A DNA stretch of 64,000 nt, taken from a virus. The translations under genes and the position numbers were made by a program. This document shows positions 14,655-26,752 of the stretch, in pieces. The notes under the pieces were generated by a model. That model saw only the letters and a program-made list of their open reading frames with translations. It had not been told where the DNA came from and did no database searches. The stretch covers positions 32,001 through 96,000 of the IMG/VR virus record IMGVR_UViG_3300032287_003622. The stretch is one strand, 5' to 3'. Positions within the stretch are counted from its first letter, which is position 1; each line of letters starts with the position of its first letter.

Positions 14655-15096
14655 ACCAGTAATAGACAAACAATTTTGGATCTTGCAAGACGGCAATCAA
14701 AAAATTGGTAACATAGAAGCCTGTGCCGGGGGCTACCAAGTTAAAATCCGCAATCAAGTGGCACAGTTCAAGACCATCAAGATGGCGGCCAGAACTGTGA
14801 ATATAGAATTTGAACCGGCTGTGAAAAAATCACAATCAAAACCTAGCACAGATTCGGTACATGGATATCCAGTTGCAGGACGTGTTCATAATCCCATGTG
14901 GGACGTTCCACAACAATTGCCCGTCTACACCAAGACAGCCAAAAGTAAATCGTGGTTCGCAGCCGGTTGGTACAACGTCAAGCGAGGAAGACAGTGGCGG
15001 ACCATACATGCTCCCAAACTGATCATGTTGCAACGCTATCCCTACCAAGGACCTTTCCAATCCGAGCAAGAGGCCAATGACCATACATCTCAATAA
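14638..15096 (+). CDS. hypothetical phage protein
   Basis: AGGAG SD; coupled ORF. Confidence 0.7.
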   Translation: MKLIAKPVIDKQFWILQDGNQKIGNIEACAGGYQVKIRNQVAQFKTIKMAARTVNIEFEPAVKKSQSKPSTDSVHGYPVAGRVHNPMWDVPQQLPVYTKTAKSKSWFAAGWYNVKRGRQWRTIHAPKLIMLQRYPYQGPFQSEQEANDHTSQ

Positions 15097-15286
15097 ATTT
15101 GTTGATCGTGTGCGGGGTCATGAGTCGCGTGGTGCACGAGACTTTGTGATGAGCATGGCCGATGCCAAGGATCTACATGCGGACATCACACGACTGTTGG
15201 CAGAACTGGTTTCCTTGCGATCACAGCTGGAACAACAACAAGATACGCAGGTCATTACCGTAAAAATGAACGGGGGCAGTTTCTAA
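15077..15286 (+). CDS. hypothetical protein
   Basis: Coupled ORF with GAGG SD. Confidence 0.6.
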   Translation: MTIHLNKFVDRVRGHESRGARDFVMSMADAKDLHADITRLLAELVSLRSQLEQQQDTQVITVKMNGGSF

Positions 15287-15331
15287 ATCTACATATATTT
15301 TGGCATAAATAACATGTAGGAGTTTAATGCC

Positions 15332-15619
15332 ATGAGCCGACCCAAACCCAGTGTCATAATCGAACACGCCAACAAAAGCACATACAAAACCGAGCAGGTC
15401 CTGGCCAGCGAAGGTGTATGGGCGGTTTTCTATGATTCACGTCCCATCAATCTAAAAACTTCAAATCTCTTGGTGCAATATCCTGGGCCCAAATACAAAA
15501 AAGTAAGTTTCAGCAATCCCGGGCATGCCCGTAACTTGGCCCGCAGACTCAACACACAATTCAAGACCGACAAGTTCACAGTGGTTCTGCTTAAATCGGG
15601 CGATCAGGTCTATCCTTGA
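15332..15619 (+). CDS. hypothetical phage protein
   Basis: AGGAG SD; CATAAATA upstream; PGPKYKKVSFSNPGHA motif. Confidence 0.7.
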   Translation: MSRPKPSVIIEHANKSTYKTEQVLASEGVWAVFYDSRPINLKTSNLLVQYPGPKYKKVSFSNPGHARNLARRLNTQFKTDKFTVVLLKSGDQVYP

Positions 15620-15620
15620 T

Positions 15621-15992
15621 GTGCGAGACAAAAGAAAACTGACCGAACAATTGGTGCGCCAACTGGACCCAGATCTGGGCATAACAGCCAAATTGGCCAT
15701 GCACACCTGGTGGTTCAATATAAGAAAAACTGGAGGCATGCGACTGACCGGCCCAGGTTATCGTGTGTTTACCGAAGAGTTGGATCTGTCCCGTTACGAA
15801 TTTGCCATACCTGACCCACATCAATTCAATCAACACGTGATCCTGGATTTAGATAGGAAAATGCAAATGCCTTACTATATTTCGGCCACCAAAGGCATAC
15901 CCAAAAAAATTGTGTTTTTTGGAAGCAAAGAAGCGGTCATGGTAAACTTATATGGTAATCTCAAACAATTTCTTGACAACTACCGGCCTTGA
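15621..15992 (+). CDS. hypothetical protein (GTG start inferred)
   Basis: In-frame GTG immediately after the upstream stop codon. Confidence 0.6.
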   Translation: MRDKRKLTEQLVRQLDPDLGITAKLAMHTWWFNIRKTGGMRLTGPGYRVFTEELDLSRYEFAIPDPHQFNQHVILDLDRKMQMPYYISATKGIPKKIVFFGSKEAVMVNLYGNLKQFLDNYRP

Positions 15993-16001
15993 TGCTATAC
16001 T
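15973..16001 (+). promoter_or_regulatory. sigma70 promoter for tRNA(CAU)
   Basis: TTGACA-17 nt-TATACT with extended -10 TG. Confidence 0.75.
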
Positions 16002-16009
16002 GTAAATCA

Positions 16010-16097
16010 GGGCCGAACGCCGTATGGTTTGCAGGCACCGGCCTCATAAGCCGGCTCAGAAATGACACTGTGGGTTCAAATCCCTCTCGGCCCACCA
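16010..16097 (+). tRNA. tRNA with CAU anticodon (Ile2 or Met) carrying an extra variable-arm hairpin
   Basis: Acceptor GGGCCGA/TCGGCCC plus ACCA; anticodon arm CCGGC-CTCATAA-GCCGG; T-loop TTCAAAT; variable hairpin TCA-GAAA-TGA. Confidence 0.85.
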
Positions 16098-16110
16098 AAA
16101 CAAGGTAAAT

Positions 16111-16293
16111 ATGATGACCGTGGAACAGCAAAAGAAGCAGCCAGTAGAAAGTTATTACTACTCCGAAGACGAGTGGAACAGGCTGGGTTGTGGCCCATTG
16201 CCACCCGAACGTGATCGTGCTCGCCAACTTGAAAATGTGGCCGCACGAGGCAATCCTGTCATTGACGGCAAAAACATCAAAGGGTATAATTAA
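16111..16293 (+). CDS. hypothetical protein
   Basis: 60-aa ORF with AAGG SD. Confidence 0.55.
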   Translation: MMTVEQQKKQPVESYYYSEDEWNRLGCGPLPPERDRARQLENVAARGNPVIDGKNIKGYN

Positions 16294-16294
16294 C

Positions 16295-16378
16295 ATGTGG
16301 TTGATATTTTTTGCATTCATGGCCATAGTGATTTGCTATGGTATTATGTGGTTGAATGAACATCAGGACGAACAATGA
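16295..16378 (+). CDS. 27-aa single-TM peptide
   Basis: MWLIFFAFMAIVICYGIMWLNEHQDEQ; starts 1 nt after the upstream stop. Confidence 0.5.
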   Translation: MWLIFFAFMAIVICYGIMWLNEHQDEQ

Positions 16379-16467
16379 ACATATCTAAAAACATTCCCTG
16401 GGCGGCCATTGCGGCCCTGGCAGTATTTGTGGCCATGGGGGTTGTGGCTCACTTGTTTGGTAAATGA
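16375..16467 (+). CDS. 30-aa single-TM peptide
   Basis: MNISKNIPWAAIAALAVFVAMGVVAHLFGK; ATGA overlap with the upstream ORF. Confidence 0.5.
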   Translation: MNISKNIPWAAIAALAVFVAMGVVAHLFGK

Positions 16468-16468
16468 A

Positions 16469-16537
16469 ATGAATCAAGATCTCAGTTTTGCCATTGGTGT
16501 AGTTGTGGTAGCTATTGTGTTTTTATTGATTTTATAG
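16469..16537 (+). CDS. 22-aa single-TM peptide
   Basis: MNQDLSFAIGVVVVAIVFLLIL; starts 1 nt after the upstream stop. Confidence 0.45.
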   Translation: MNQDLSFAIGVVVVAIVFLLIL

Positions 16538-16577
16538 TTTCCACGTTTGACCAAACGTGGTGGTAGGACGGGCCCGA

Positions 16578-16606
16578 TTGACAAATAAATAGGTGTGTCG
16601 TATAAT
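16578..16606 (+). promoter_or_regulatory. sigma70 promoter for tmRNA
   Basis: Perfect TTGACA-17 nt-TATAAT. Confidence 0.8.
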
Positions 16607-16611
16607 ATTAA

Positions 16612-16865
16612 AGAATTGTAGTTTAATGCCTTGACAGAAAGGTGTTGCGGACTCGGGGGCAGTGCCCGACGGGTCCACCATAAGAGCATACTGTGTTTTT
16701 ATGATGGGCCCGACACAGTTTCGACGTGGCAACAAGTATGAACAGGATCTACACAGTAGGCGATGACTGTAAATCAAGCAAACCTAAATAACCGCTAATG
16801 ATGAGTTATTTCTAGCAGCCGCTTGATCGGTATGCGTGAGCAACTATGCTTAGAAACAGAAAATA
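16612..16865 (+). ncRNA. ssrA: circularly permuted two-piece tmRNA, tag (A)ANDELFLAAA
   Basis: Acceptor piece ends GAC-TCGGG-GGCAGTG-CCCGA-CGGGTCC-ACCA (16680). An intervening hairpin follows, then the coding piece starts GGGCCCGAC...TTCGAC (16706). The acceptor stem has G3.U70. Tag ORF is 16794-16826. Outer ends approximate. Confidence 0.88.
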
Positions 16866-16867
16866 GC

Positions 16868-16891
16868 AATAGGGCCTTCGGGCCCTATTTT
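16868..16891 (+). terminator. intrinsic terminator
   Basis: AATAGGGCC-TTCG-GGCCCTATT followed by TT. Confidence 0.85.
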
Positions 16892-17023
16892 GTTGACCAT
16901 AATAGACTCAGTTTACTCTAAATACCCGCAAAACCCCTGTAATTTTTGTTGGCCGTCAGTGAAAACCACTAAATAACTTGTTGGGTGTTCACCCAGCATT
17001 CTTTTAAAAGGAAAATCTCAAGC

Positions 17024-17764
17024 ATGAAAAAATTATTATTAGCATTGGCCTTGTCCGCTGGCTTTGTTGCCTCGGCTCAAGCTCAACTCACCGGCAATTT
17101 AGGTTTGACCAGCGACTACCGTTTCCGCGGTGTTAGCCAAACCCAAAATGCTCCTGCAGTTCAGGGCGGCATCGACTATGCACACAAGAGTGGCTTCTAC
17201 GTTGGTAACTGGAACAGCTCGGTCTCTAGCCAAGTCTACACCGCAGGTGCAGGTTTAGAAAGTGACTTGTATGCTGGTTACAAGAAAGAAATCTTCAAGG
17301 GCATCAGCATTGACGTTGGTAGCTACAACTATTTCTATCCACGTGCAACCACTTCAGCACGGACTGGTTCAAACTTTGACACCTATGAAGCCTATGTTGG
17401 TTTATCACATGGCGACCATATCAGTGCCAAGTATAGCAGAGTCCTAGGCGATGGCTATTTTGGTACAGCCAATGCTCAAGGCACAACCTACATGCAAGCC
17501 GATGGCAAGTTGCCAGTTCCTGTAATCAAGAACCTAGCAGTTGTAGCTCATTATGGTCGTACCAATGTGGCCAACAGTTCAACCTTGGATTACAATGACA
17601 TCAATGCTGGTATTGTTTACAGTCTACCCAAAGATTTTGATTTAAGTGTCAAGTATTTTACCAATACTGGCACCACAAGAACTTTTGAAACTGCAAACAC
17701 TGTGAGCGGTCAAAAACTCTACAAGAATGCAGTGGTAGTGGGCTTGACAAAAACTTTTAATTAA
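17024..17764 (+). CDS. TorF/TIGR02001 (gcw_chp)-like outer-membrane beta-barrel porin
   Basis: Signal peptide MKKLLLALALSAG..AQA; SDYRFRGVSQT..PAVQGG.DY.H.SGFYVGNW.S; DLYAGY; C-terminal TKTF. Confidence 0.85.
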   Translation: MKKLLLALALSAGFVASAQAQLTGNLGLTSDYRFRGVSQTQNAPAVQGGIDYAHKSGFYVGNWNSSVSSQVYTAGAGLESDLYAGYKKEIFKGISIDVGSYNYFYPRATTSARTGSNFDTYEAYVGLSHGDHISAKYSRVLGDGYFGTANAQGTTYMQADGKLPVPVIKNLAVVAHYGRTNVANSSTLDYNDINAGIVYSLPKDFDLSVKYFTNTGTTRTFETANTVSGQKLYKNAVVVGLTKTFN

Positions 17765-17779
17765 TTTTAAAAGTAATCC

Positions 17780-17812
17780 AAAAAAAAAAGCTCCTCCGGG
17801 AGCTTTTTTTTT
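17780..17812 (+). terminator. bidirectional intrinsic terminator
   Basis: A10-GCTCC-TCCG-GGAGC-T9. Confidence 0.85.
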
Positions 17813-17824
17813 GGTAAGTAATCC

Positions 17825-19303
17825 ATGTGCGGCATATTACTGGTCAAAAGTCGATCGAACATTCCCTTAGAAAAACATCTGTCAACTTTTGTGAAATTAC
17901 AAAGCCGTGGCCCAGATTTCTGCAGATATCAATACCAAAACAACACGTTCATTGGACATGCTGTGTTACACATAACTGGCTCCGCTGATTATTATCACAC
18001 CCAACACCAAAACTTCTTGGCCTACAACGGTGAGATATACAATTACAAGGAATTTGGTCCCTGGGAGACCGACACCGCTTTTGTTCATCATGCAGTGGAA
18101 CACGACCTTGATCTGCTAAAAGAAGCCTGGGGTCCCTGGGCCTGGGCATGGACAGATGGTGACGTTGTGCGGTATGCCACAGACCCGCAGGGCGAGCGTG
18201 CCCTGTATCAATATCAAGACGATGACATCTTGATAGTGTGTAGCGAAATAGCACCCATACTTGAATATATCAATTCAGCCAAGGCAGATGTTCCATATGT
18301 CAACAAGACTTGGACCATGCTGGACCGCACACCCTGGCAAGGTATCACCAAAATCACTCCTGGCCTATTGTATCTGGACGGACAAGCCACCTACCAGATC
18401 GACAGCATATGGTCTTGGGTGGCCGAACCATTACATCATACACTGGACGAAGCCTATGAAGATTTCGAGTCACGTTGGCGGCAGGTCATCAAGCAGATGA
18501 CTCCAAACTGCCCAGCGGCTTTGACCTATTCTGGTGGCTTGGACAGCTCGGTTATCCTGAGTCACCTGCCCGGACTTGATCTCTATTCGATCAACTGCGT
18601 GGGCAAGGATCCCATAGTAGATCAAATAAATGAATTTTTACATCCCGAAGAACAGGCAAGGTTACACGTGACTGCGCTGTCAGAATCGCAATGGGCTGAT
18701 GAAATGTCGCAAATGATGGCACGGACCTGCATGCCACCCTTGAGCTGGAGTTGGGTAGGGCAGTGGACGGTCACACGTCACTGCCAACAGCGAGTATTGT
18801 TTACCGGAGCTGGAGCCGACGAACTGTTTGGAGGGTATGACGTGTACAGGAATATTGACTACAGCACAACCAGTTGTTCCAGTCCCTACAGCCGGTATAC
18901 AGATCCTGAAACCTGGCAACGGTGTCTGTCAGTGTATGACAATGACCCTGTGCAGGCCACCTTGCTCATGGACTACTGGCATCAGATCGTGGGCTGTGAT
19001 GCACGGGCTGTAGATCTAATCGCGGGTGCATGGGGTATTGAACCCAGGAATCCATTTTTGGCCAAGCCCATCATGCAGTTGGCTTTGAACTTGCCCAGCC
19101 GTTTCAAGGTGACTTCCGAATCCAAACCTTTGATACGCAGGTTATTTTTGCAACGCTGGACCCTTGATCACATATTACCAAAAAAAGGATTCACTGGGCA
19201 TGCCAATGATTCAGCAACTTGGCTGGCAACAGACATCAAGCCATCTGGCGATCGCATGGTTGATTGGCAAAAAATCGTGAGACAATGTTTTTATGCAAGC
19301 TAA
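17825..19303 (+). CDS. asparagine synthase (AsnB)-like glutamine amidotransferase
   Basis: Motifs MCGI (Ntn Cys), RGPD, YNGEIYN, SGGLDSS, GAGADELFGGY, R.PFL and KKGF. Confidence 0.85.
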   Translation: MCGILLVKSRSNIPLEKHLSTFVKLQSRGPDFCRYQYQNNTFIGHAVLHITGSADYYHTQHQNFLAYNGEIYNYKEFGPWETDTAFVHHAVEHDLDLLKEAWGPWAWAWTDGDVVRYATDPQGERALYQYQDDDILIVCSEIAPILEYINSAKADVPYVNKTWTMLDRTPWQGITKITPGLLYLDGQATYQIDSIWSWVAEPLHHTLDEAYEDFESRWRQVIKQMTPNCPAALTYSGGLDSSVILSHLPGLDLYSINCVGKDPIVDQINEFLHPEEQARLHVTALSESQWADEMSQMMARTCMPPLSWSWVGQWTVTRHCQQRVLFTGAGADELFGGYDVYRNIDYSTTSCSSPYSRYTDPETWQRCLSVYDNDPVQATLLMDYWHQIVGCDARAVDLIAGAWGIEPRNPFLAKPIMQLALNLPSRFKVTSESKPLIRRLFLQRWTLDHILPKKGFTGHANDSATWLATDIKPSGDRMVDWQKIVRQCFYAS

Positions 19304-19862
19304 CAAGATTGACCAACCTTGGACACACTGGATAGCCGATGACTTCCTGACTCCATCCTGTTTGGCTGAAGTCAAAGGCATACAGCATACAGTGACTCAG
19401 ACCATTCCCGGCAAGCGCCGTGACAGCCAACGATTGTTTGTGGACCATGATGTGGCTGATCAGTATCCAGAGTTGTATGCCCTGTATCTGAGTTTGCATT
19501 CGGGCACCTATAGAGATTTTTTTGAAAGACACACAGGGATCAGCTATCAAGGCCTGCATCCCAGAATAGAAGTCATCAGTGATTGGGGAGATTTTTATCT
19601 AGAACCACACTATGACCTACCAGAAAAACGACTCACGGCTTTGGTCTACACCGACCATGAGATTCTGTATCCAGGCACTGGTCTGGGCGACGGCACACGG
19701 ATTGAAAGCCGAGACAATCGCTGTTTCTTTTTTGTGCCAGGGCCACACAGTCTTCATGATTATCCACTGACTCATTTTGATCGTGTGCGCAGATGTCTAC
19801 AGATCAACTATTGGACTTATAATCTGCCCAAGGACGCAAAATATCAAACCACTCTGGTGTAA
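19293..19862 (+). CDS. 2OG-Fe(II) oxygenase
   Basis: HxD motif (PHYD), distal His (SLHDY) and RRCLQINY. Confidence 0.7.
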   Translation: MQANKIDQPWTHWIADDFLTPSCLAEVKGIQHTVTQTIPGKRRDSQRLFVDHDVADQYPELYALYLSLHSGTYRDFFERHTGISYQGLHPRIEVISDWGDFYLEPHYDLPEKRLTALVYTDHEILYPGTGLGDGTRIESRDNRCFFFVPGPHSLHDYPLTHFDRVRRCLQINYWTYNLPKDAKYQTTLV

Positions 19863-20508
19863 AAACACAAGCTGGATGTTGTTGTAGCCAACCCTGCATG
19901 GCGTCAACACACCAAGGCTCGCCGGGAGTCACTGCAGAAGTCTTGGCACTGTTGTATTCATACCAAAATATGCCATAGGGTGCAGAAGGATCTGTCAGAG
20001 TGAACAAGAACTGTTGGCCAACCACGGCACCACACAAGGTAGCAAACTGATCAAACGAAGTTACTGGCACTAGATGATCAAATCTATTCTTGTGCTGACA
20101 GCCAGTGCTGACAAAGGCTCGCACTGTTTGTATGGCAGGTATGCGTTCAAGAGCACGCAGGCGACTTTCACCATTGTTGATTCCATACTGATCCTGGCCA
20201 TCATAGAACAACATCATAGGTTTGACAATTCCTTGTGTTTGTATGTCAGCGATCCACATGTTGAGTTTGACTATGTTGGCAATGTCATAATGATTGGCGG
20301 TGTTTGCTATGAAACCTTGATGTCCATGAGTCTTTATTTGTCGATTGGCCCAGTCGCAGATGTCCTGCAAGGTCTGTTGATATCGTATCTGATCAACTGG
20401 CACCTCTGGATCGTAATATAGACAGTGGGCTCCATCGTGCAAGCTCTGCACTATGGGATCCTGATCCGTGGGCCAAAGGCATTCTATCCTGGGATTATTC
20501 CAATACAT
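19804..20508 (-). CDS. hypothetical protein, possible ParB/Srx-like fold
   Basis: GIVKP...GINNGESRLRAL resembles the ParB DG.HR motif. Confidence 0.55.
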   Translation of the reverse strand: MYWNNPRIECLWPTDQDPIVQSLHDGAHCLYYDPEVPVDQIRYQQTLQDICDWANRQIKTHGHQGFIANTANHYDIANIVKLNMWIADIQTQGIVKPMMLFYDGQDQYGINNGESRLRALERIPAIQTVRAFVSTGCQHKNRFDHLVPVTSFDQFATLCGAVVGQQFLFTLTDPSAPYGIFWYEYNSAKTSAVTPGEPWCVDAMQGWLQQHPACVFTPEWFDILRPWADYKSNS

Positions 20509-20524
20509 ATAAGTAGTTATTCAC

Positions 20525-21502
20525 ATGACAGCTTCCAAAGAAAAAACACACACCGATGGCATTTGGATTTCTGAGCAAAGAGAGATTGCTATAATCGATC
20601 AATTCTGTAAAGTTATTTTGGCCAAGGGTTTTGTTCCTATACGTCAAAATGCCAATAATTTTGGACGTCCTTATCTGTATTCACAAGGCAAGACCTTCCT
20701 GCATTGTAGATTTGTAGACAGTGTGTTCCTGGAAGATCCAGAGGCCTGGCACCGTCCCAGACCCAGTATTATTATCACCGACAATATTCCTACAAAACCT
20801 ATGTCATCTGACTTGATTTTGGCATTGCCAGAATTTTGGCACATTTGGCATTTTGATCCGGTGTTTGAAGATCGTCCAGCCACCTGGAGCTATAATTGTT
20901 TTATGAATCGTTGCCGTGGTGATCGTTCACGCACATTTTATGAACTGATCCGCAGAGATATCCTGCAACATGGACTGGTCAGTTACAATGTAGACAATGA
21001 ATTATATCAACAACAACACATTTCAGCGGATCTACACAACTACGAAAAAGAATATCAAATAGGTCAAACTCTGATACCTTACAACAACCTAAAGGGATCA
21101 CTGGAACAGTGTGTGATTGATTCGGCGGTGAGCTTGATTTTAGAAACTTATACCAGCGACGATCACATAGTGTTCAGTGAAAAATTGTTCAGATGTCTGC
21201 AATTGCCAAGACCCTGGTTGTTGTATTGCGGTCCCGGTGCCGTTGAACAACTCAGAGTTTATGGATTTGATGTGTTGGACAATTATGTAGATCACAGTTA
21301 TGATCGTGTTAAACCTCACGGACATAGACTAAATGCAATAATCAATCACTTAGAAACTTTTATAAACAAAAAATATACCGAGAGTGATTATGATAGGTTT
21401 CGTAGGGCCGCTCAGCATAATCGATCTCAATTAAAAAAATTTGCATCAGCATGGCCAGCGAAATTTCAAAACATTTTAGATAAATTAAATCAATATGCTT
21501 GA
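20525..21502 (+). CDS. TEK-family glycan-modifying protein (GT10-like C-terminus)
   Basis: LETY...FSEKLFRCL..P.P...LR.YGFD...VDHSYD. Confidence 0.6.
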   Translation: MTASKEKTHTDGIWISEQREIAIIDQFCKVILAKGFVPIRQNANNFGRPYLYSQGKTFLHCRFVDSVFLEDPEAWHRPRPSIIITDNIPTKPMSSDLILALPEFWHIWHFDPVFEDRPATWSYNCFMNRCRGDRSRTFYELIRRDILQHGLVSYNVDNELYQQQHISADLHNYEKEYQIGQTLIPYNNLKGSLEQCVIDSAVSLILETYTSDDHIVFSEKLFRCLQLPRPWLLYCGPGAVEQLRVYGFDVLDNYVDHSYDRVKPHGHRLNAIINHLETFINKKYTESDYDRFRRAAQHNRSQLKKFASAWPAKFQNILDKLNQYA

Positions 21503-22526
21503 AATATTTGGACCTACCTACAAATACCAGGGCGAAATCCTGTCTGAGCCAGAAATCATTTTCATCGAAGATCATCACTATGACGAACAAAATCATTGTT
21601 TCCAGGTGCAACAACTTTTGGAAAACAGTGCTTGTGATCCGCGCCTGCATTTGATAATCGTGGGAGGTCTTGGACACGATGATGTGCTTGATCAATATCG
21701 TTGTGTTAGTTTGCCTTATTTCACAGCCGGAACTTGCGAACAGTTCAATCGCGGAAACATCATACCTGATTGGACACAAAAAACACATTGTTTCAATTTC
21801 ATGATCAACAAACCGCGTCTGCACCGAAGGTTTTTGCTAATGTTGCTACAGCATTTTGAACTAGACAACTATACCTATTGTTTGCCCTGGAAAAATTTAG
21901 ATCTCAATCCCAGGGAACTGATGGGCCGAACATCAAATGCAGAATATCAGTCTATCATTACACAAAATCCAAAATTCAACCGATCTGGGACCAATTATGC
22001 TTTTGGCAATGAGGCCACCTTAGACCAAGGAATAAAAAATGGCAGCTGGAAGAACGCCCAAACCTACAATCAATTTTTGAAATCACAGGTGTTTGAGCCC
22101 AGTTGTGTGAGCCTGATCACTGGCAGTTTGTTTTATGAACGTGAAACCAGGATTTCCGAGACCACACTCATGGCCATGTATGCTGGCACCATACCAATCT
22201 GGGTGGGTGGATGGCGGGCGGCACAAAGGTTGAAAGATCTGGGATTTGATGTGTTTGATGACCTTGTTGATCACAGTTACCAAGACATGCCAGACCCAAT
22301 GGATAGATGTTACTTTGCCATAAAAAACAATTTGAAAATCTTGCAGGATTTCGAAGGCACCAAAAAATTTGTGGATCAAAATCATGCAAGACTACAAAAG
22401 AATTTGGATTTGTGCAAGAACAACGTTTTTTTAAAACACATAGGAGATCAAGTATCAAAATTGCCTGGCAATCTACAACCCATTGTAAAAACCTTTGTAA
22501 ATCAACAAGTAATGGGGTTGACCTAG
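21495..22526 (+). CDS. TEK-family protein (motif degenerate)
   Basis: INKPR.HR; ISETTLMAM..P...LK.LGFDVF...VDHSY. Confidence 0.6.
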   Translation: MLEIFGPTYKYQGEILSEPEIIFIEDHHYDEQNHCFQVQQLLENSACDPRLHLIIVGGLGHDDVLDQYRCVSLPYFTAGTCEQFNRGNIIPDWTQKTHCFNFMINKPRLHRRFLLMLLQHFELDNYTYCLPWKNLDLNPRELMGRTSNAEYQSIITQNPKFNRSGTNYAFGNEATLDQGIKNGSWKNAQTYNQFLKSQVFEPSCVSLITGSLFYERETRISETTLMAMYAGTIPIWVGGWRAAQRLKDLGFDVFDDLVDHSYQDMPDPMDRCYFAIKNNLKILQDFEGTKKFVDQNHARLQKNLDLCKNNVFLKHIGDQVSKLPGNLQPIVKTFVNQQVMGLT

Positions 22527-22546
22527 TATAAATAATTGTATATAAT
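22518..22546 (+). promoter_or_regulatory. sigma70 promoter with embedded TATAAATA late motif
   Basis: TTGACC-17 nt-TATAAT; TATAAATA at 22527-22534. Confidence 0.75.
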
Positions 22547-22555
22547 AACACTATT

Positions 22556-22657
22556 ATGTTGAATCACAAATTATCCTATCTTGTGCCACAACCCAATTTT
22601 GAAGGGAGTGCCGTGCTATGGGCGATTTGTGAAGATGGGATTCGAGGTAACGAATAG
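22556..22657 (+). CDS. 33-aa putative attenuator leader peptide MLNHKLSYLVPQPNFEGSAVLWAICEDGIRGNE
   Basis: ATG 9 nt after the -10 box; 19 amino acids and 27 distinct codons; 3' end lies within an antiterminator helix. Confidence 0.7.
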   Translation: MLNHKLSYLVPQPNFEGSAVLWAICEDGIRGNE

Positions 22658-22693
22658 TATAACACACTATACAAAAATATTCGAAACCTCGGA
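22641..22693 (+). promoter_or_regulatory. antiterminator hairpin
   Basis: Pairings 22641-48/22686-93, 22651-56/22678-83 and 22657-61/22668-72 (19 bp); sequesters the terminator 5' arm. Confidence 0.7.
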
Positions 22694-22715
22694 ACTATAA
22701 ACTCCGAGGTTTTTT
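22684..22715 (+). terminator. intrinsic terminator (attenuator) upstream of the tRNA cluster
   Basis: AAACCTCGGA-ACTATAAC-TCCGAGGTTT followed by TTTT. Confidence 0.85.
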
Positions 22716-22735
22716 ATTTTAGAGAAAGGAATGTG

Positions 22736-22909
22736 ATGTCGATTGATTATACAAAATTAAACGATCAAGTTGTTAAACAGGCCTATGATGCCAGCAGTGC
22801 TTTTTTGACTGAAGCACAACGGCAGAGACTGTTTCAGAACAAGATCGATCGTGCGGCCGCAATGATACGGGCGCAGGAACAGTTTCGTCAGTTAGAGCAA
22901 GAACAGTGA
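22736..22909 (+). CDS. 57-aa helical hypothetical protein
   Basis: AAAGGA SD; MSIDYTKLNDQVVKQAY...QFRQLEQEQ. Confidence 0.6.
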   Translation: MSIDYTKLNDQVVKQAYDASSAFLTEAQRQRLFQNKIDRAAAMIRAQEQFRQLEQEQ

Positions 22910-22915
22910 AACAAT

Positions 22916-22989
22916 CGCGGGTTGTGATAGTCATACTCTGGTCTCATAAGCCAAGATGGAATAGGGAGCGTTACCCTAGCCCGCAACCA
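22916..22989 (+). tRNA. atypical tRNA-Met(CAU), initiator-like
   Basis: CGCGGGT/GCCCGCA with C1:A72; CTCATAA loop; 3' ACCA; D-arm shrunken; T-loop AGCGTTA is non-canonical. Confidence 0.6.
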
Positions 22990-22995
22990 TGTCAC

Positions 22996-23073
22996 AGTGA
23001 GGTGGCCGAGTGGTCCAAGGCAAGTGCCTGCAAAGCATTCAAGTCGTGAGTTCGAATCTCACCCTCACTTCCA
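22996..23073 (+). tRNA. tRNA-Cys(GCA)
   Basis: AGTGAGG/CCTCACT; loop CTGCAAA; TTCGAAT; U73-CCA. Confidence 0.92.
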
Positions 23074-23075
23074 AG

Positions 23076-23152
23076 TCCGGAGTAGTTCCAATTGGCAGAA
23101 CAGCGGTCTCCAAATCCGCGTGTTGGCGGTTCGAATCCGTCCTCCGGTGCCA
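23076..23152 (+). tRNA. tRNA-Trp(CCA)
   Basis: Loop CTCCAAA; TTCGAAT; G73-CCA. Confidence 0.9.
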
Positions 23153-23180
23153 ATTTATTTAGAAAAGAAAGGAGGCACGT

Positions 23181-23771
23181 ATGCCAGCAGTATTTTTAGT
23201 CAGCGACACACACTTTGGCCACGCAGGTGTATGTCGCTTTAAGCGCAACGATGGTGTTACAAAATTGCGGCCTTGGGACACAGCCGAGGAAATGGATGAG
23301 TTCATGGTTGCAGCATGGAACGAGCGTGTAAGGCCAAACGACAAAGTTTATCACTTGGGTGATGTTGTTATGAGCCGTAAAAGTCTTGCTATCATGCGCA
23401 GGCTCAACGGTGACAAGGTTCTTATCCGTGGCAATCATGATATCTTCAAGGACACTGACTATCGTGAACACTTCCGTGAACTGCGTGCTTATCATGTGAT
23501 GAATGGCATGATACTCAGTCATATCCCTATCCACTCAGAAAGTCTGGGTCGGTTTGGCACGAATATTCATGGTCACTTGCACGCCAACCGGGTGATGTTG
23601 CCCGGATTCAATGGCAAGGTCACTGACATTGTTGATGTTCGTTACCACTGTGTTTGTGTGGAACAAACCGACTTTGCTCCTATCCTGTTTGAAGATGTGA
23701 TCAAGAGGATTGAAGCAGAAGGTGGCCAAATCGGTTTTCAAAACGGCAATGGCACTACGCAAGCCATGTAA
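23181..23771 (+). CDS. calcineurin-like metallophosphoesterase
   Basis: Motifs SDTHFGH, HLGD, GNHD, SHIP and HGHLH; AGGAGG SD. Confidence 0.9.
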   Translation: MPAVFLVSDTHFGHAGVCRFKRNDGVTKLRPWDTAEEMDEFMVAAWNERVRPNDKVYHLGDVVMSRKSLAIMRRLNGDKVLIRGNHDIFKDTDYREHFRELRAYHVMNGMILSHIPIHSESLGRFGTNIHGHLHANRVMLPGFNGKVTDIVDVRYHCVCVEQTDFAPILFEDVIKRIEAEGGQIGFQNGNGTTQAM

Positions 23772-23776
23772 GGACG

Positions 23777-23854
23777 ACCCCTGTAGACAAATTGGTAAAG
23801 TCACCTGTTTAAGGAACAGGAGCATTGTAGGTTCAAATCCTACCAGGGGCACCA
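23777..23854 (+). tRNA. tRNA-Leu(AAG) with short variable region
   Basis: Anticodon arm CCTGT-TTAAGGA-ACAGG; T-arm GTAGG-TTCAAAT-CCTAC; ACCA. Confidence 0.8.
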
Positions 23855-23883
23855 TTGACATCCAGTGAGTTTTATAGTATAAT
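23855..23883 (+). promoter_or_regulatory. sigma70 promoter
   Basis: TTGACA-17 nt-TATAAT directly after the tRNA CCA. Confidence 0.8.
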
Positions 23884-23905
23884 TAACATTTTACAAGGAG
23901 AGGTT

Positions 23906-24127
23906 ATGAGTGTTAGAATTGAAAGTCGTAGCACCGAAATTGACACCGAACGCTGTGTGCGCAATGCCGGCGGTCGCTATGATCTAGTTGTGGCAGCAGC
24001 TCAACGCCTGAGAGAAATGAAACGTCGTGCCCGTGAAACCAACACTCATGTGACCACCATTGATGCACTCAAAGAAGTTGAATCTGGCACTTTTAATATG
24101 ACAGACTATTTGATAAAGATAAAATAA
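23906..24127 (+). CDS. rpoZ: RNA polymerase omega subunit homolog
   Basis: E.CV...GGRYDLVVAAAQR.RE...T.DALKEV..G matches the RpoZ pattern; AAGGAG SD. Confidence 0.75.
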   Translation: MSVRIESRSTEIDTERCVRNAGGRYDLVVAAAQRLREMKRRARETNTHVTTIDALKEVESGTFNMTDYLIKIK

Positions 24128-24283
24128 ATGAAAAAGCAATCAGCAGGTGAACTCAGTAGAACCATTGCAGGACAATGGTCAAAAAGTGAAAAGCGGTCGG
24201 CTGCATCTCGCAGTATCACAGCTGCCAACAAGCGAATACATCAGATTCTCAAAACATTTGCTCAAAAACAAAGAATGCAGTAA
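24128..24283 (+). CDS. 51-aa basic hypothetical protein
   Basis: Starts immediately after the rpoZ stop: MKKQSAGELSRTIAGQW... Confidence 0.55.
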   Translation: MKKQSAGELSRTIAGQWSKSEKRSAASRSITAANKRIHQILKTFAQKQRMQ

Positions 24284-24292
24284 CAGTGGTAT

Positions 24293-24367
24293 GCACCGTT
24301 CGTCTATCGGTTAGGACACCCGCCTTTCACGCAGGTAAGAGCGGTTCGATTCCGCTACGGTGTACCA
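24293..24367 (+). tRNA. tRNA-Glu(UUC)
   Basis: GCACCGT/ACGGTGT; loop CTTTCAC; TTCGATT; ACCA. Confidence 0.9.
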
Positions 24368-24424
24368 AATATTTTGTAGAGCAGTCACGCAAAATAAGTA
24401 AACATATCAATTAGGATCACAAAC

Positions 24425-24640
24425 ATGGCAAAAAAACTACAGCGCAAAAAACCTGGCTACACCCGTGCCGGCGAAGTCAAGATCATCAGTCTCAGCGTGC
24501 GACAGCTCACTGAGTTAAAAGCAAAAACACAGGCCACAAAAAAACAGGTCAAGATACAGCGCAGGATTGACTTGCTGAAACGTCGTCCCGGATATCGCGA
24601 GCCAGTGGTTGAGGCAACACCCGACGCCCTCGTCGCATAG
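24425..24640 (+). CDS. small basic hypothetical protein
   Basis: K/R-rich 71-aa ORF with AGGA SD; its 3' end overlaps a tRNA. Confidence 0.6.
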   Translation: MAKKLQRKKPGYTRAGEVKIISLSVRQLTELKAKTQATKKQVKIQRRIDLLKRRPGYREPVVEATPDALVA

Positions 24641-24709
24641 TGGGATTGCAACGGATTTGTAATCCGTCGAGGAAACTCAAAGGGTGTTCGATTCACCCCG
24701 GGGGCACCA
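24626..24709 (+). tRNA. tRNA-Thr(UGU) with extra variable-arm hairpin
   Basis: GCCCTCG/CGGGGGC plus ACCA; ACGGA-TTTGTAA-TCCGT; variable hairpin GAG-GAAA-CTC; TTCGATT. Confidence 0.8.
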
Positions 24710-24725
24710 CACAAAGGAGAATTTA

Positions 24726-24890
24726 ATGAGTAAAATGAGCGATCTACTTAAGAAGGCCTTGGACAAGAAGCGAGGTATCCATCACATTGAAAATGAAGAT
24801 GCACCAGTGGTGGAAAAGAAAACCGCCAAACAGCGAGCACCCGTGATAGGCAAAAAACCACCTACCAGATCGGCCGGTCGAGGCCGATAA
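24726..24890 (+). CDS. small basic hypothetical protein
   Basis: AAGGAG SD; ends RSAGRGR. Confidence 0.6.
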   Translation: MSKMSDLLKKALDKKRGIHHIENEDAPVVEKKTAKQRAPVIGKKPPTRSAGRGR

Positions 24891-25594
24891 TGCGTTCAAT
24901 CAAGGAAATAAAAAAAGACAGTAAACCAATCGTATTTTTAGGTAGCTGTCACAATATCCAAAATTTGGTAGAACTGTGTAATTCAAGTGGTAGAGAAGTG
25001 ATTGGGTTGATAGATCCTGATTATGATTCTCAAAAAGAATTTTATGGACTGCCTGTCCTGCAAAAAAAACCCTACATCAACGAGCCCGAAAAATATGAAT
25101 TTTTCGTGGCCACATGGTGGACACCTTTTCAAAATAACGTTCATCGGCGCAATCTCAAAAAACGCAGATTGTTTTTGGCCTGGATGGAATCATACAAATT
25201 TACAGGTGCCACAGTAATTCACGATACTGCTGTGATCAGTCCCAAGGCCATGATTGACTCGCATGTCAGTGTGGGTGCGTTGTCAATACTCGTGCAAAAT
25301 TGCCAAATACACAAACATACCAATATAAGAGAACAATGTTATGTGAGTCATGATGTTGTTGTTGACTCTAACTGTGTGCTACAGATGAAGTCCACTGTGA
25401 CCGGAAGTATCACTGTTGGTTCCAACACCTACATAGGCCCTGGAGCAACTGTGGTCAATGGCAGTCCATTAAATCCCATGCACATAGGCAACAACGTTAT
25501 AATACATCCAAATCAGCTGGTTTTAGAATCAGTCGCAGATAACACCATTGTAAGCTACAAAAAAGCTCCGTTCGTGGTGACGGTTGACCAATAA
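24890..25594 (+). CDS. hexapeptide-repeat acetyltransferase (PglD/NeuD-like)
   Basis: IH.TAVIS..A.I...V.V; SHD..V; left-handed beta-helix repeats. Confidence 0.8.
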   Translation: MRSIKEIKKDSKPIVFLGSCHNIQNLVELCNSSGREVIGLIDPDYDSQKEFYGLPVLQKKPYINEPEKYEFFVATWWTPFQNNVHRRNLKKRRLFLAWMESYKFTGATVIHDTAVISPKAMIDSHVSVGALSILVQNCQIHKHTNIREQCYVSHDVVVDSNCVLQMKSTVTGSITVGSNTYIGPGATVVNGSPLNPMHIGNNVIIHPNQLVLESVADNTIVSYKKAPFVVTVDQ

Positions 25595-25612
25595 TCCAAT
25601 TTGTTGTATAAT
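25584..25612 (+). promoter_or_regulatory. sigma70-type promoter of the AAA+ gene
   Basis: TTGACC-17 nt-TATAAT. Confidence 0.75.
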
Positions 25613-25666
25613 AGTCCTATAGTAGTAAATTGTTATCAACCTAAATAACTTACAAAGGACACAGCC

Positions 25667-26752
25667 ATGTCAGACACAAGAACAGTAACCTCAGTGCAGG
25701 CCCGCAAGAGCTTGCTCAAAGCATTTTCGAAAAAACGCCCACTCTTTTTGTGGGGTCCTCCTGGTATCGGTAAAAGTGAATTGGTAGCCGATATTGCCCA
25801 AGAACTTGGTGGCCACATGATCGACCTCCGACTTGGTCAGATGGAGCCCACTGATATCCGTGGTATTCCGTTTTACAACAAAGATTCAGGCAAAATGGAC
25901 TGGGCTGAACCGGTAGACTTGCCAACTGCGGAATTTGCCAGCCAGTATCCTATCGTGGTGCTATTCTTGGACGAGATGAATTCAGCGGCTCCGTCGGTAC
26001 AGGCCGCGGCCTATCAGTTGATCCTTAATCGTCGCTGTGGCAAATACTTTTTGCCCGACAATGTGGTGTTAGTTGCTGCCGGTAATCGCGAAAGCGACAA
26101 AGGTGTTACATATAGAATGCCCACGCCCTTGGCCAATCGTTTCATACACCAAGAAATGCGTGTGGACTTTGCCAGTTACCAGGAATGGGCAGTCAACAAC
26201 AACATCCATAAAGACGTGGTGGGTTATTTGAGTTTTGCCAAGCAAGATCTCTATGACTTTGATCCCAAATCAGCTTCGCGTGCCTTTGCTACACCAAGGT
26301 CATGGACATTCGTCAGCCAGATTCTTGAAGACGAAGACGGCGATGATGACACTATCATGAACCTGATTGCTGGCACTGTGGGTGAAGGACTTGCTGTGAA
26401 GTTCATGGCACATCGCAAGATTGCTGGCAAGATGCCCAAACCTGAAGATATCTTGAGTGGCAAGGAAAAAGATCTCAATGTCAAAGAAGTATCGGCTATG
26501 TATTCTCTGGTCATTGGCATGTGCTACGAGCTCAAGGGTGCCATTGAAAAGAAGGTGCCAGACAAGCAGTTTCATGAAATGGCCGACCATTTCTTCAAGT
26601 ACATGATGCAGAACTTTGAGACTGAGCTTGTGGTCATGGGTGCCCGTATTGCACTAACCACCTACAACTTACCGTTCCAGCCTACCAAGCTCAAGAACTT
26701 TGATGAGTTCCACAACCGCTACGGCAAGTATATCCTGCAAGCTTCGGCCTAG
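25667..26752 (+). CDS. MoxR-like AAA+ ATPase
   Basis: Walker A GPPGIGKS, Walker B LFLDEMN, AAGNR, LANRF and TPRSW. Confidence 0.9.
   Translation: MSDTRTVTSVQARKSLLKAFSKKRPLFLWGPPGIGKSELVADIAQELGGHMIDLRLGQMEPTDIRGIPFYNKDSGKMDWAEPVDLPTAEFASQYPIVVLFLDEMNSAAPSVQAAAYQLILNRRCGKYFLPDNVVLVAAGNRESDKGVTYRMPTPLANRFIHQEMRVDFASYQEWAVNNNIHKDVVGYLSFAKQDLYDFDPKSASRAFATPRSWTFVSQILEDEDGDDDTIMNLIAGTVGEGLAVKFMAHRKIAGKMPKPEDILSGKEKDLNVKEVSAMYSLVIGMCYELKGAIEKKVPDKQFHEMADHFFKYMMQNFETELVVMGARIALTTYNLPFQPTKLKNFDEFHNRYGKYILQASA

Follow-up and report, generated by a model that had tools for sequence, protein, structure and literature searches.

When does a phage that carries its own transfer RNA (tRNA) genes express them? 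Why phages carry such genes has long been debated, with codon supplementation set against escape from tRNA-cleaving defences, and to our knowledge the control of phage tRNA genes is hardly known. The question is posed by a locus in IMG/VR record IMGVR_UViG_3300032287_003622, a 134,932-base contig from a large uncultured lake phage (39% complete by CheckV; content of G and C, 44.8%) with related phage contigs of up to 320-367 kb. We analysed bases 32001-96000 of this contig, a stretch of 64,000 nucleotides (nt) referred to below as the window, and all positions are given in its numbering. At 22518-22720 a promoter, a short open reading frame (ORF) and two overlapping hairpins precede an operon of tRNA genes, a small protein gene (orf57) and a phosphoesterase gene. 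We consider it likely that this element is a ribosome-mediated, leader-peptide attenuator that gates the tRNA operon kinetically, with tRNA supply as the likely signal; the phage tRNAs would then probably be made only when ribosomes read slowly.

Architecture and conservation of the leader element

The element comprises a near-consensus promoter, a leader ORF, a predicted antiterminator hairpin and an intrinsic terminator, in that order (Table 1). An earlier interpretation made from the letters alone (the sequence-only reading) had proposed a TTGACC-17-TATAAT promoter with an ATG 9 nt past the -10 box and a 33-codon ORF, and promoter, start codon and product were all found as it described them. 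The promoter spacer carries TATAAATA at 22527-22534, and the ATAAATA within it was conserved in the spacer of 41 of the 42 leaders recovered with orf57 as bait, hence independently of the promoter. Only two of the window's seven strict consensus promoters contain ATAAATA, namely the leader promoter and the promoter of a transfer-messenger RNA (tmRNA) at 16578; an operator and a second promoter are possible roles for the motif. A T4-type late promoter was considered for TATAAATA and rejected, since matches were not enriched (4 in the window compared with 2.05 expected, a number reached in 15 of 100 shuffles). No promoter-like site was found on the + strand from 22547 to 23409, and the next consensus promoter, matching at 12 of 12 positions, lies behind the operon at 23855-23883.

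Table 1. Positions of the leader element and of the genes behind it in the window
Feature	Start	End	Strand	Details
Promoter	22518	22546	+	-35 TTGACC at 22518-22523, 17-nt spacer, -10 TATAAT at 22541-22546; 11 of 12 consensus positions
Leader ORF	22556	22657	+	33 codons and TAG (stop at 22655-22657); product MLNHKLSYLVPQPNFEGSAVLWAICEDGIRGNE
Antiterminator hairpin (predicted)	22641	22693	+	5' strand is codons 29-33 and the stop; 3' strand ends in ACCTCGGA, 8 nt of the terminator 5' arm
Intrinsic terminator (predicted)	22684	22719	+	10-bp stem 22684-22693/22703-22712, 9-nt loop, T run TTTTTT
orf57	22736	22909	+	Small helical protein of 57/58 amino acids; first gene past the terminator; AAAGGA, resembling a ribosome-binding site, upstream
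tRNA-Met(CAT) relic, initiator-like	22916	22989	+	Alignment to called genes of relatives
tRNA-Cys(GCA)	22996	23073	+	ARAGORN, Rfam
tRNA-Trp(CCA)	23076	23152	+	ARAGORN, Rfam
Calcineurin-like phosphoesterase	23181	23771	+	Metallophos, phrog_547; common inside tRNA regions of related contigs
tRNA-Leu(AAG)	23777	23854	+	ARAGORN, Rfam; final gene before the promoter at 23855-23883

Relatives were collected from IMG/VR with four baits: the phosphoesterase, for which 597 of 599 matched stretches were confirmed and the best 80 of these used; a promoter pattern, which gave at least 120 stretches; orf57, which gave 43 loci; and a terminator pattern, which gave 79 stretches. The phosphoesterase itself sits within tRNA regions, and the other three baits are independent of tRNAs. 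Pooling of the four sets yielded at least 94 distinct leader variants from related phage contigs, which fell into 21 clusters at approximately 45% peptide identity. A leader ORF was present in 42 of the 43 orf57-baited loci and in 55 of the 56 terminator-baited contexts that had enough upstream DNA. The lone exception among the orf57 loci (L216:3240-3500) has an ATAAATA-bearing promoter directly before orf57, without a leader ORF or terminator. No second copy of the element was found in the phage's own 134,932-base contig.

Examination of the variants revealed a leader ORF with the properties of a translated sequence. The ORF was open in 94 of 94 variants at a length of 20-53 codons, and its ATG lay 5-11 nt after the -10 hexamer in every one of them. 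No Shine-Dalgarno sequence precedes the ATG in the window or across the family, and the leader mRNA is presumably leaderless or nearly so, lacking a 5' untranslated region. In a set of 52 variants the ORF ranged from 31 to 53 codons, yet the distance from stop codon to T run was 47-59 nt (50 of 52 within 44-56). The +1 and +2 frames were open up to the hairpin in 0 and 5 of these 52 variants, respectively. Within three leader clusters the ratio of nonsynonymous to synonymous variation (pN/pS) was 0.36-0.87, and in cluster B, to which the window belongs, the third codon position was the most variable (485, 501 and 803 differences at the first, second and third positions). The third-position excess and the pN/pS values therefore indicate that the leader ORF behaves as coding sequence under moderate constraint, and we infer that it is translated.

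The two hairpins were examined base by base and by folding. The three helices named in the sequence-only reading for the antiterminator (22641-48/22686-93, 22651-56/22678-83 and 22657-61/22668-72) agreed with the sequence at each base and were present in the fold of the nascent RNA, and the terminator that it had placed at 22684-22715 proved to have a 10-bp stem followed by TTTTTT. The stop codon of the window's leader lies inside the antiterminator stem. Folding of 22550-22725 gave -44.8 kcal/mol (z = -2.99), a stability reached by none of 200 shuffles. Nascent-RNA folds, in which each RNA ran from the AUG to the end of the terminator 5' arm, revealed that at least 5 nt of this arm were paired with the stop-proximal segment in 31 of 32, 47 of 52 and 83 of 94 variants in successive sets. 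The mean number of captured arm bases was 7.15 nt, compared with 0.87 in dinucleotide shuffles of the upstream part. The energies of the two hairpins were balanced, with a mean free energy of -15.9 kcal/mol for the antiterminator and -15.7 kcal/mol for the terminator.

The pairing partners changed together among relatives. The arm pair TCGAGGT/ACCTCGG of the window was replaced by compensatory pairs elsewhere, namely TTCAGGGC/GCCCTGGA, TTGGGGT/ACCTCGA, AGAGGC/GCCTCT and TCCGGGGGTCTT/AAGGCCCCGGA. In an alignment of 28 sequences, 92.6% of terminator cells were paired, with 3 of the 10 pairs changed on both sides. In the same alignment the antiterminator in the window's register had 72.9% of cells paired, compared with at most 48.4% when the partners were slid; its three outermost pairs were restricted to the window's own subfamily, and other subfamilies used a shifted register. 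The sequence-only reading had suggested looking for a conserved layout of ORF, antiterminator and terminator in related phages. Because this layout recurs with covariation across the 94 variants, it is far beyond chance.

We also modelled the position of the ribosome, using a footprint of -15/+12 nt around the A site. For the window's leader, the antiterminator was left free while the A site was at any of codons 1-25 and was blocked once it had reached codon 26, up to and including the stop, which agrees with the earlier proposal that a stall in approximately the first 24 codons would keep the antiterminator intact. The interior of the ORF was itself structured, and footprints at codons 1-25 gave no consistent shift between terminator and antiterminator.

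Codon content of the leader and the downstream tRNA arrays

The sequence-only reading had described the leader of the window as encoding every amino acid but Thr (19 of 20) with 27 distinct codons, among them the four Leu codons TTG, TTA, CTT and CTA and codons of both Ser boxes; its first 25 codons were said to contain 23 different triplets. We obtained the same counts, the Ser codons being TCC and AGT. Comparison with 20,000 random 33-codon windows drawn from the phage's own long ORFs supported part of this description: at least 19 amino acids (P = 0.0077) and at least 23 different triplets in the first 25 codons (P = 0.026) were uncommon, but at least 27 distinct codons was unremarkable (P = 0.087). 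The evidence that the window's own codon diversity is above chance is thus suggestive at best, and its cluster as a whole was mildly diverse (median P 0.10-0.12).

Diversity was more evident across the family. Leaders were approximately 1 standard deviation more diverse in amino acids than protein windows (mean z +0.98; z > 0 in 17 of 21 clusters; Fisher P = 1.1e-4), and the trend held for 14 clusters against an independent, identically distributed null (P = 7e-4) and against a stop-free nucleotide-shuffle null (Fisher P = 0.007). Five clusters, with leaders of 38-53 codons, contained all 20 amino acids in every member. The rarest residues accounted for most of the excess: among the first 14 clusters, the fractions with Cys, Trp and His were 1.00, 0.93 and 0.98, where 0.40, 0.53 and 0.66 were expected. 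Phe was under-represented in the same clusters (0.58 versus 0.80 expected), and four clusters were at or below the null, one of which uses 10 amino acids over 21 codons (z = -1.8). Trp and Cys were considered as universal sensor codons; this was true of the first 14 clusters but failed in the 21, where Cys was missing from at least some members of five clusters and Trp from at least some members of two.

To compare each leader with the tRNA genes behind it, we took one representative per cluster and measured the share of leader residues that had a tRNA downstream, relative to permuted pairings of leaders and arrays. The match at the amino-acid level was significant for arrays counted within 1000 nt (P = 5e-5, n = 14), 1500 nt (P = 5e-5, n = 16), 2500 nt (P = 1.5e-4, n = 14) and 4000 nt (P = 1.6e-3, n = 13). 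At the codon level, with wobble rules, the tests gave P = 4e-4, 0 of 20,000 permutations and P = 5.5e-4, and leave-one-out analysis gave P ≤ 8e-4. Individual loci illustrate the match. The leader MLNLNLNLLGTTGNAAEDTLRG of locus L294, which has no Trp or Cys, precedes tRNAs for Gly, Glu, Ala, Leu, Ile, Asp, Asn, Leu, Gly and Thr, an array with no tRNA-Trp and no tRNA-Cys. The leader MMNRNANTFIVIPSTPRWCGCFCGST of L285 precedes tRNAs for Trp, Pro, Cys, Met, Thr, Ser and Gly, and the leader of L180, which lacks Trp and has the tail LYEFAFEYHDFRDF, precedes tRNAs for Tyr, Glu and Phe.

These results bear on the idea of a pan-codon sensor, in which backup tRNAs would be induced whenever any tRNA is depleted, as by a host anticodon nuclease, and the leader would not be matched to its array. 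This explanation overlaps with the attenuator proposed here, and we regard it as possible but doubtful. The breadth of the window's leader, which carries 19 amino acids although its own array is small, the diversity of most clusters under each null, the five clusters with a full set of amino acids and the enrichment of Cys, Trp and His all agree with it, as does the failure to find a position-specific anti-antiterminator, so that any early stall should act alike. The mild diversity of the window's cluster, the four clusters at or below the null and the scarcity of Phe are at odds with it, and so is the match between leader composition and the leader's own array. Nor was evidence for an anticodon nuclease found, although no search was aimed at one. 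A correlation of leader diversity with the number of downstream tRNA species was not reproduced, falling from rho = 0.60 (P = 0.051, n = 11) to rho = 0.17 (P = 0.56, n = 14). Because composition follows the leader's own array, "array-matched" fits the family better than "pan". From the sequence-only reading, then, the conserved ORF, the stop-holding antiterminator that takes up the terminator 5' arm and the covariation across 94 variants were borne out, but the general sensor only partly: the family's leaders are diverse and some complete, but several are poor in amino acids and their content tracks their arrays.

A related and equally tentative proposal is that the leaderless leader acts as a checklist for the whole tRNA pool, where initiation would report on initiator tRNA and free 70S ribosomes, and elongation on every elongator tRNA. 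If this were true, a shortfall such as that caused by anticodon-nuclease cleavage would open the tRNA array, which would close again once the pool had recovered, and phage tRNA arrays would be inducible, self-limiting repair kits rather than constitutive codon supplements.

Proposed mechanism and competing explanations

The architecture suggests the following sequence of events. The sigma-70-type promoter would start the RNA at, or a few bases from, the ATG, and a ribosome would read the 33-codon leader while RNA polymerase proceeds. A hairpin would form with the last codons and the stop as its 5' strand and, in its 3' strand, 8 nt of the terminator 5' arm. A ribosome in step with the polymerase, on entering the last ~8 codons or the stop, would melt this hairpin, the terminator would form and transcription would end near 22715. 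If the ribosome lagged, through slow decoding in codons 1-25 or through a lack of initiation, the hairpin would persist and block the terminator, and read-through would extend into orf57, tRNA-Cys, tRNA-Trp, the phosphoesterase and tRNA-Leu(AAG). Since the leaders of the family consist largely of amino acids that the downstream tRNAs serve, the signal is most likely the supply of usable tRNA, which would place the phage's own tRNA output under negative feedback.

Several observations weigh against this attenuator. Transcription start, leader translation, termination and the direction of control are all deduced from sequence. The predicted capture of the terminator arm was absent from the minimum free energy fold in 11 of the 94 variants. 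At equilibrium the terminator state was favoured in most sequences by 0 to +5 and up to +9 kcal/mol, and the antiterminator state in one sequence; the terminator being slightly favoured, the switch must therefore be kinetic if it operates as proposed. Footprint-masked folds contained no anti-antiterminator (1:2 pairing) with masking that depended on ribosome position, and without such pairing an untranslated RNA is predicted to read through. The leaders have no tandem runs of regulatory codons, and pN/pS values of 0.4-0.6 indicate some constraint on the peptide itself, which a pure codon sensor does not need. In the window the match between leader and array was weak, with 3 codons read by the Cys, Trp and Leu(AAG) tRNAs compared with 1.53 expected, and a P value of ~0.06 for at least one codon of each. 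The choice among synonymous codons fitted the anticodons no better than genome codon usage would predict (P = 0.17-0.26). The array-match signal was concentrated in approximately five clusters, and its permutation P values are optimistic because some clusters share ancestry. Finally, some relatives have a consensus promoter between the leader unit and the tRNAs.

The constraint on the peptide raises the alternative that the nascent peptide is the sensor. TnaC is a peptide that arrests its ribosome in this way; here a conserved Trp-containing peptide would arrest the ribosome on a small molecule or factor and thereby set the choice of terminator. Such a role would accord with the moderate purifying selection within clusters and with the presence of Trp in 89 of the 94 variants, usually at codon 19-25. 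The Leu codon before this Trp varies synonymously (CTA, TTA, CTG, TTG), which suggests that the amino acid matters and not the codon. Between clusters, however, the peptide is conserved at few residues only; one cluster and one singleton have no Trp, and their arrays have no tRNA-Trp. The composition of the leader tracks the downstream tRNAs, and we find an arrest peptide improbable.

It is likewise hard to credit that the leader is an independent small gene, encoding a micro-protein or a small RNA and ending in an ordinary terminator, with a hairpin overlap that plays no role in switching and downstream genes reached by leak-through or from other promoters: a consensus promoter and strong terminator would give an abundant RNA of ~165 nt, the peptide is under some constraint, the terminator is usually slightly favoured at equilibrium, and further promoters exist in some relatives, that of L216 driving orf57 directly with no leader, but compensatory changes preserve the overlap with the terminator arm across widely divergent sequences, the position of the stop codon within the hairpin is maintained among ORFs of different length, the hairpins are energetically balanced, the window has no promoter-like site between the terminator and orf57 or the tRNAs, some clusters have their first tRNA 5-23 nt further on, and leader composition matches the array.

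Downstream genes, related systems and implications

All genes that had been listed behind the terminator were found except one. The 57-amino-acid ORF, tRNA-Cys, tRNA-Trp, the phosphoesterase and tRNA-Leu, which is Leu(AAG), were present, but neither ARAGORN nor Rfam called the tRNA-Met, even at E ≤ 1. The sequence in its place aligns to a C1xA72 tRNA-Met(CAT) at the same position in relatives (L163, L166, L208, L210, L228, L112 and L138), and its D arm and T loop have decayed, so it is a degenerate relic. In relatives, a callable C1xA72 tRNA-Met is the first tRNA behind a leader that apparently starts at its AUG.

The association with tRNA genes extends to the family. Every one of the 57 variants with at least 2 kb of flank was followed by one or more tRNAs inside 4 kb, and 31 of 87 variants by a tRNA inside 300 nt. 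In most clusters an orf57 family gene comes shortly after the terminator and is followed by tRNA genes, often together with the phosphoesterase; other clusters have no intervening protein gene, and their first tRNA begins 5-23 nt past the terminator segment. Where orf57 is present, the homologous ORF starts 6-22 nt past a segment ending 8 nt into the T run in most loci, and 63 nt past it in one. A listing of sequencing runs named no holder recorded as RNA. A relative's 1059-nt contig, which extends from the terminator across orf57 and the tRNAs into the phosphoesterase, came from a run of uncertain kind; because it may be DNA and does not show a single transcript, it is not used as evidence.

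The orf57 family comprises proteins of 51-61 amino acids with the core L..E.K..L...K..RA, and in most clusters their gene is the first to follow the proposed attenuator. A predicted model of the orf57 product has two helices, with a mean confidence (predicted local distance difference test, pLDDT) of 84. Searches with orf57 gave no Pfam hit at the gathering score, no PHROG hit, only Atlas hits below 0.9 and no tblastn match in a collection of cultured phages. DNA matches between the window and this collection were limited to tRNAs; the phosphoesterase is widespread in it at less than 60% identity.

Other features of the window and its relatives were recorded alongside. The tmRNA at 16564-16917 has its own consensus promoter and the tag ANDELFLAAA, and fits the betaproteobacterial as well as the permuted tmRNA model. 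Behind the promoter at 23855, a 73-amino-acid ORF (23906-24127) matched RNA polymerase Rpb6/omega with a score below the threshold (25.6 bits versus a cut-off of 26). A tRNA-Met(CAT) at 16010-16097 (88 nt) and a tRNA-Thr(TGT) at 24626-24709 (84 nt) exceed the usual length of class I tRNAs. Unusual A34 tRNAs, namely Leu(AAG), Ser(ACT) and Phe(AAA), recur in the family, for example in the arrays of L016, L129, L153 and L105.

Leader-peptide attenuators are familiar from enterobacteria, where they include trpL, hisL, leuL, pheL and the multivalent thrL and ilvL. Like the trpL-type systems, the phage element has a short ORF between promoter and structural genes and a mutually exclusive antiterminator and intrinsic terminator; a ribosome at the end of the leader would likewise lead to termination and a stalled one to read-through, and the composition of the leader is related to the product of the operon. 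In contrast to the trpL-type systems, which control biosynthetic enzymes, the phage element would control tRNAs, a small protein and a phosphoesterase. Its leaders have no tandem codon runs and are multivalent for up to all 20 amino acids, its ATG lies 5-11 nt past the -10 box without a Shine-Dalgarno sequence, its stop codon falls within the antiterminator stem, and no 1:2 anti-antiterminator was detected. A cmscan search of 15000-26000 at E ≤ 1 found no match at 22518-22720 to the Rfam Trp, His, Leu, Thr and Phe leader families or to T-box. The sole leader-family match in the searched region was to Phe_leader (28.1 bits, gathering score 55) at 17743-17812.

The nearest published upstream ORF that senses stalls at many positions is toiL, a multipurpose sensory ORF of the Escherichia coli topAI-yjhQ locus that responds to antibiotics (Baniulyte and Wade, eLife 2025, PMC12121999). 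As proposed for the phage leader, stalls at different positions of toiL, with different causes, alter RNA structure and switch on downstream genes. toiL acts through occlusion of a ribosome-binding site and Rho-dependent termination, whereas the phage switch would consist of an intrinsic terminator and antiterminator with tRNA genes as output.

Host defences that target tRNAs would give a phage reason to sense and replace depleted tRNAs. Azam et al. are said to have described phage tRNAs as a counter to such defences (Nat Commun, 2024). The interplay of phage tRNAs with tRNA-targeting defences and anticodon nucleases has been treated by van den Berg et al. (eLife 2023, PMC10264068). The main text of that paper contains none of "attenuat", "terminator", "promoter" or "leader", and so presents no regulatory element for phage tRNA genes there. 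In the literature outside subscription-only papers and supplementary files, we found no description of the attenuation of tRNA genes.

At approximately 200 nt, with a sigma-70-type promoter and an intrinsic terminator, the element lends itself to direct tests in coupled in-vitro reactions with tRNA pools of known composition, and it might find use as a small reporter of whether tRNA is sufficient. If the attenuator operates as proposed, leader-peptide attenuation, a textbook mechanism for amino-acid operons, would extend to tRNA genes and to viruses, and the phage would gauge the speed of decoding and make tRNAs on demand.

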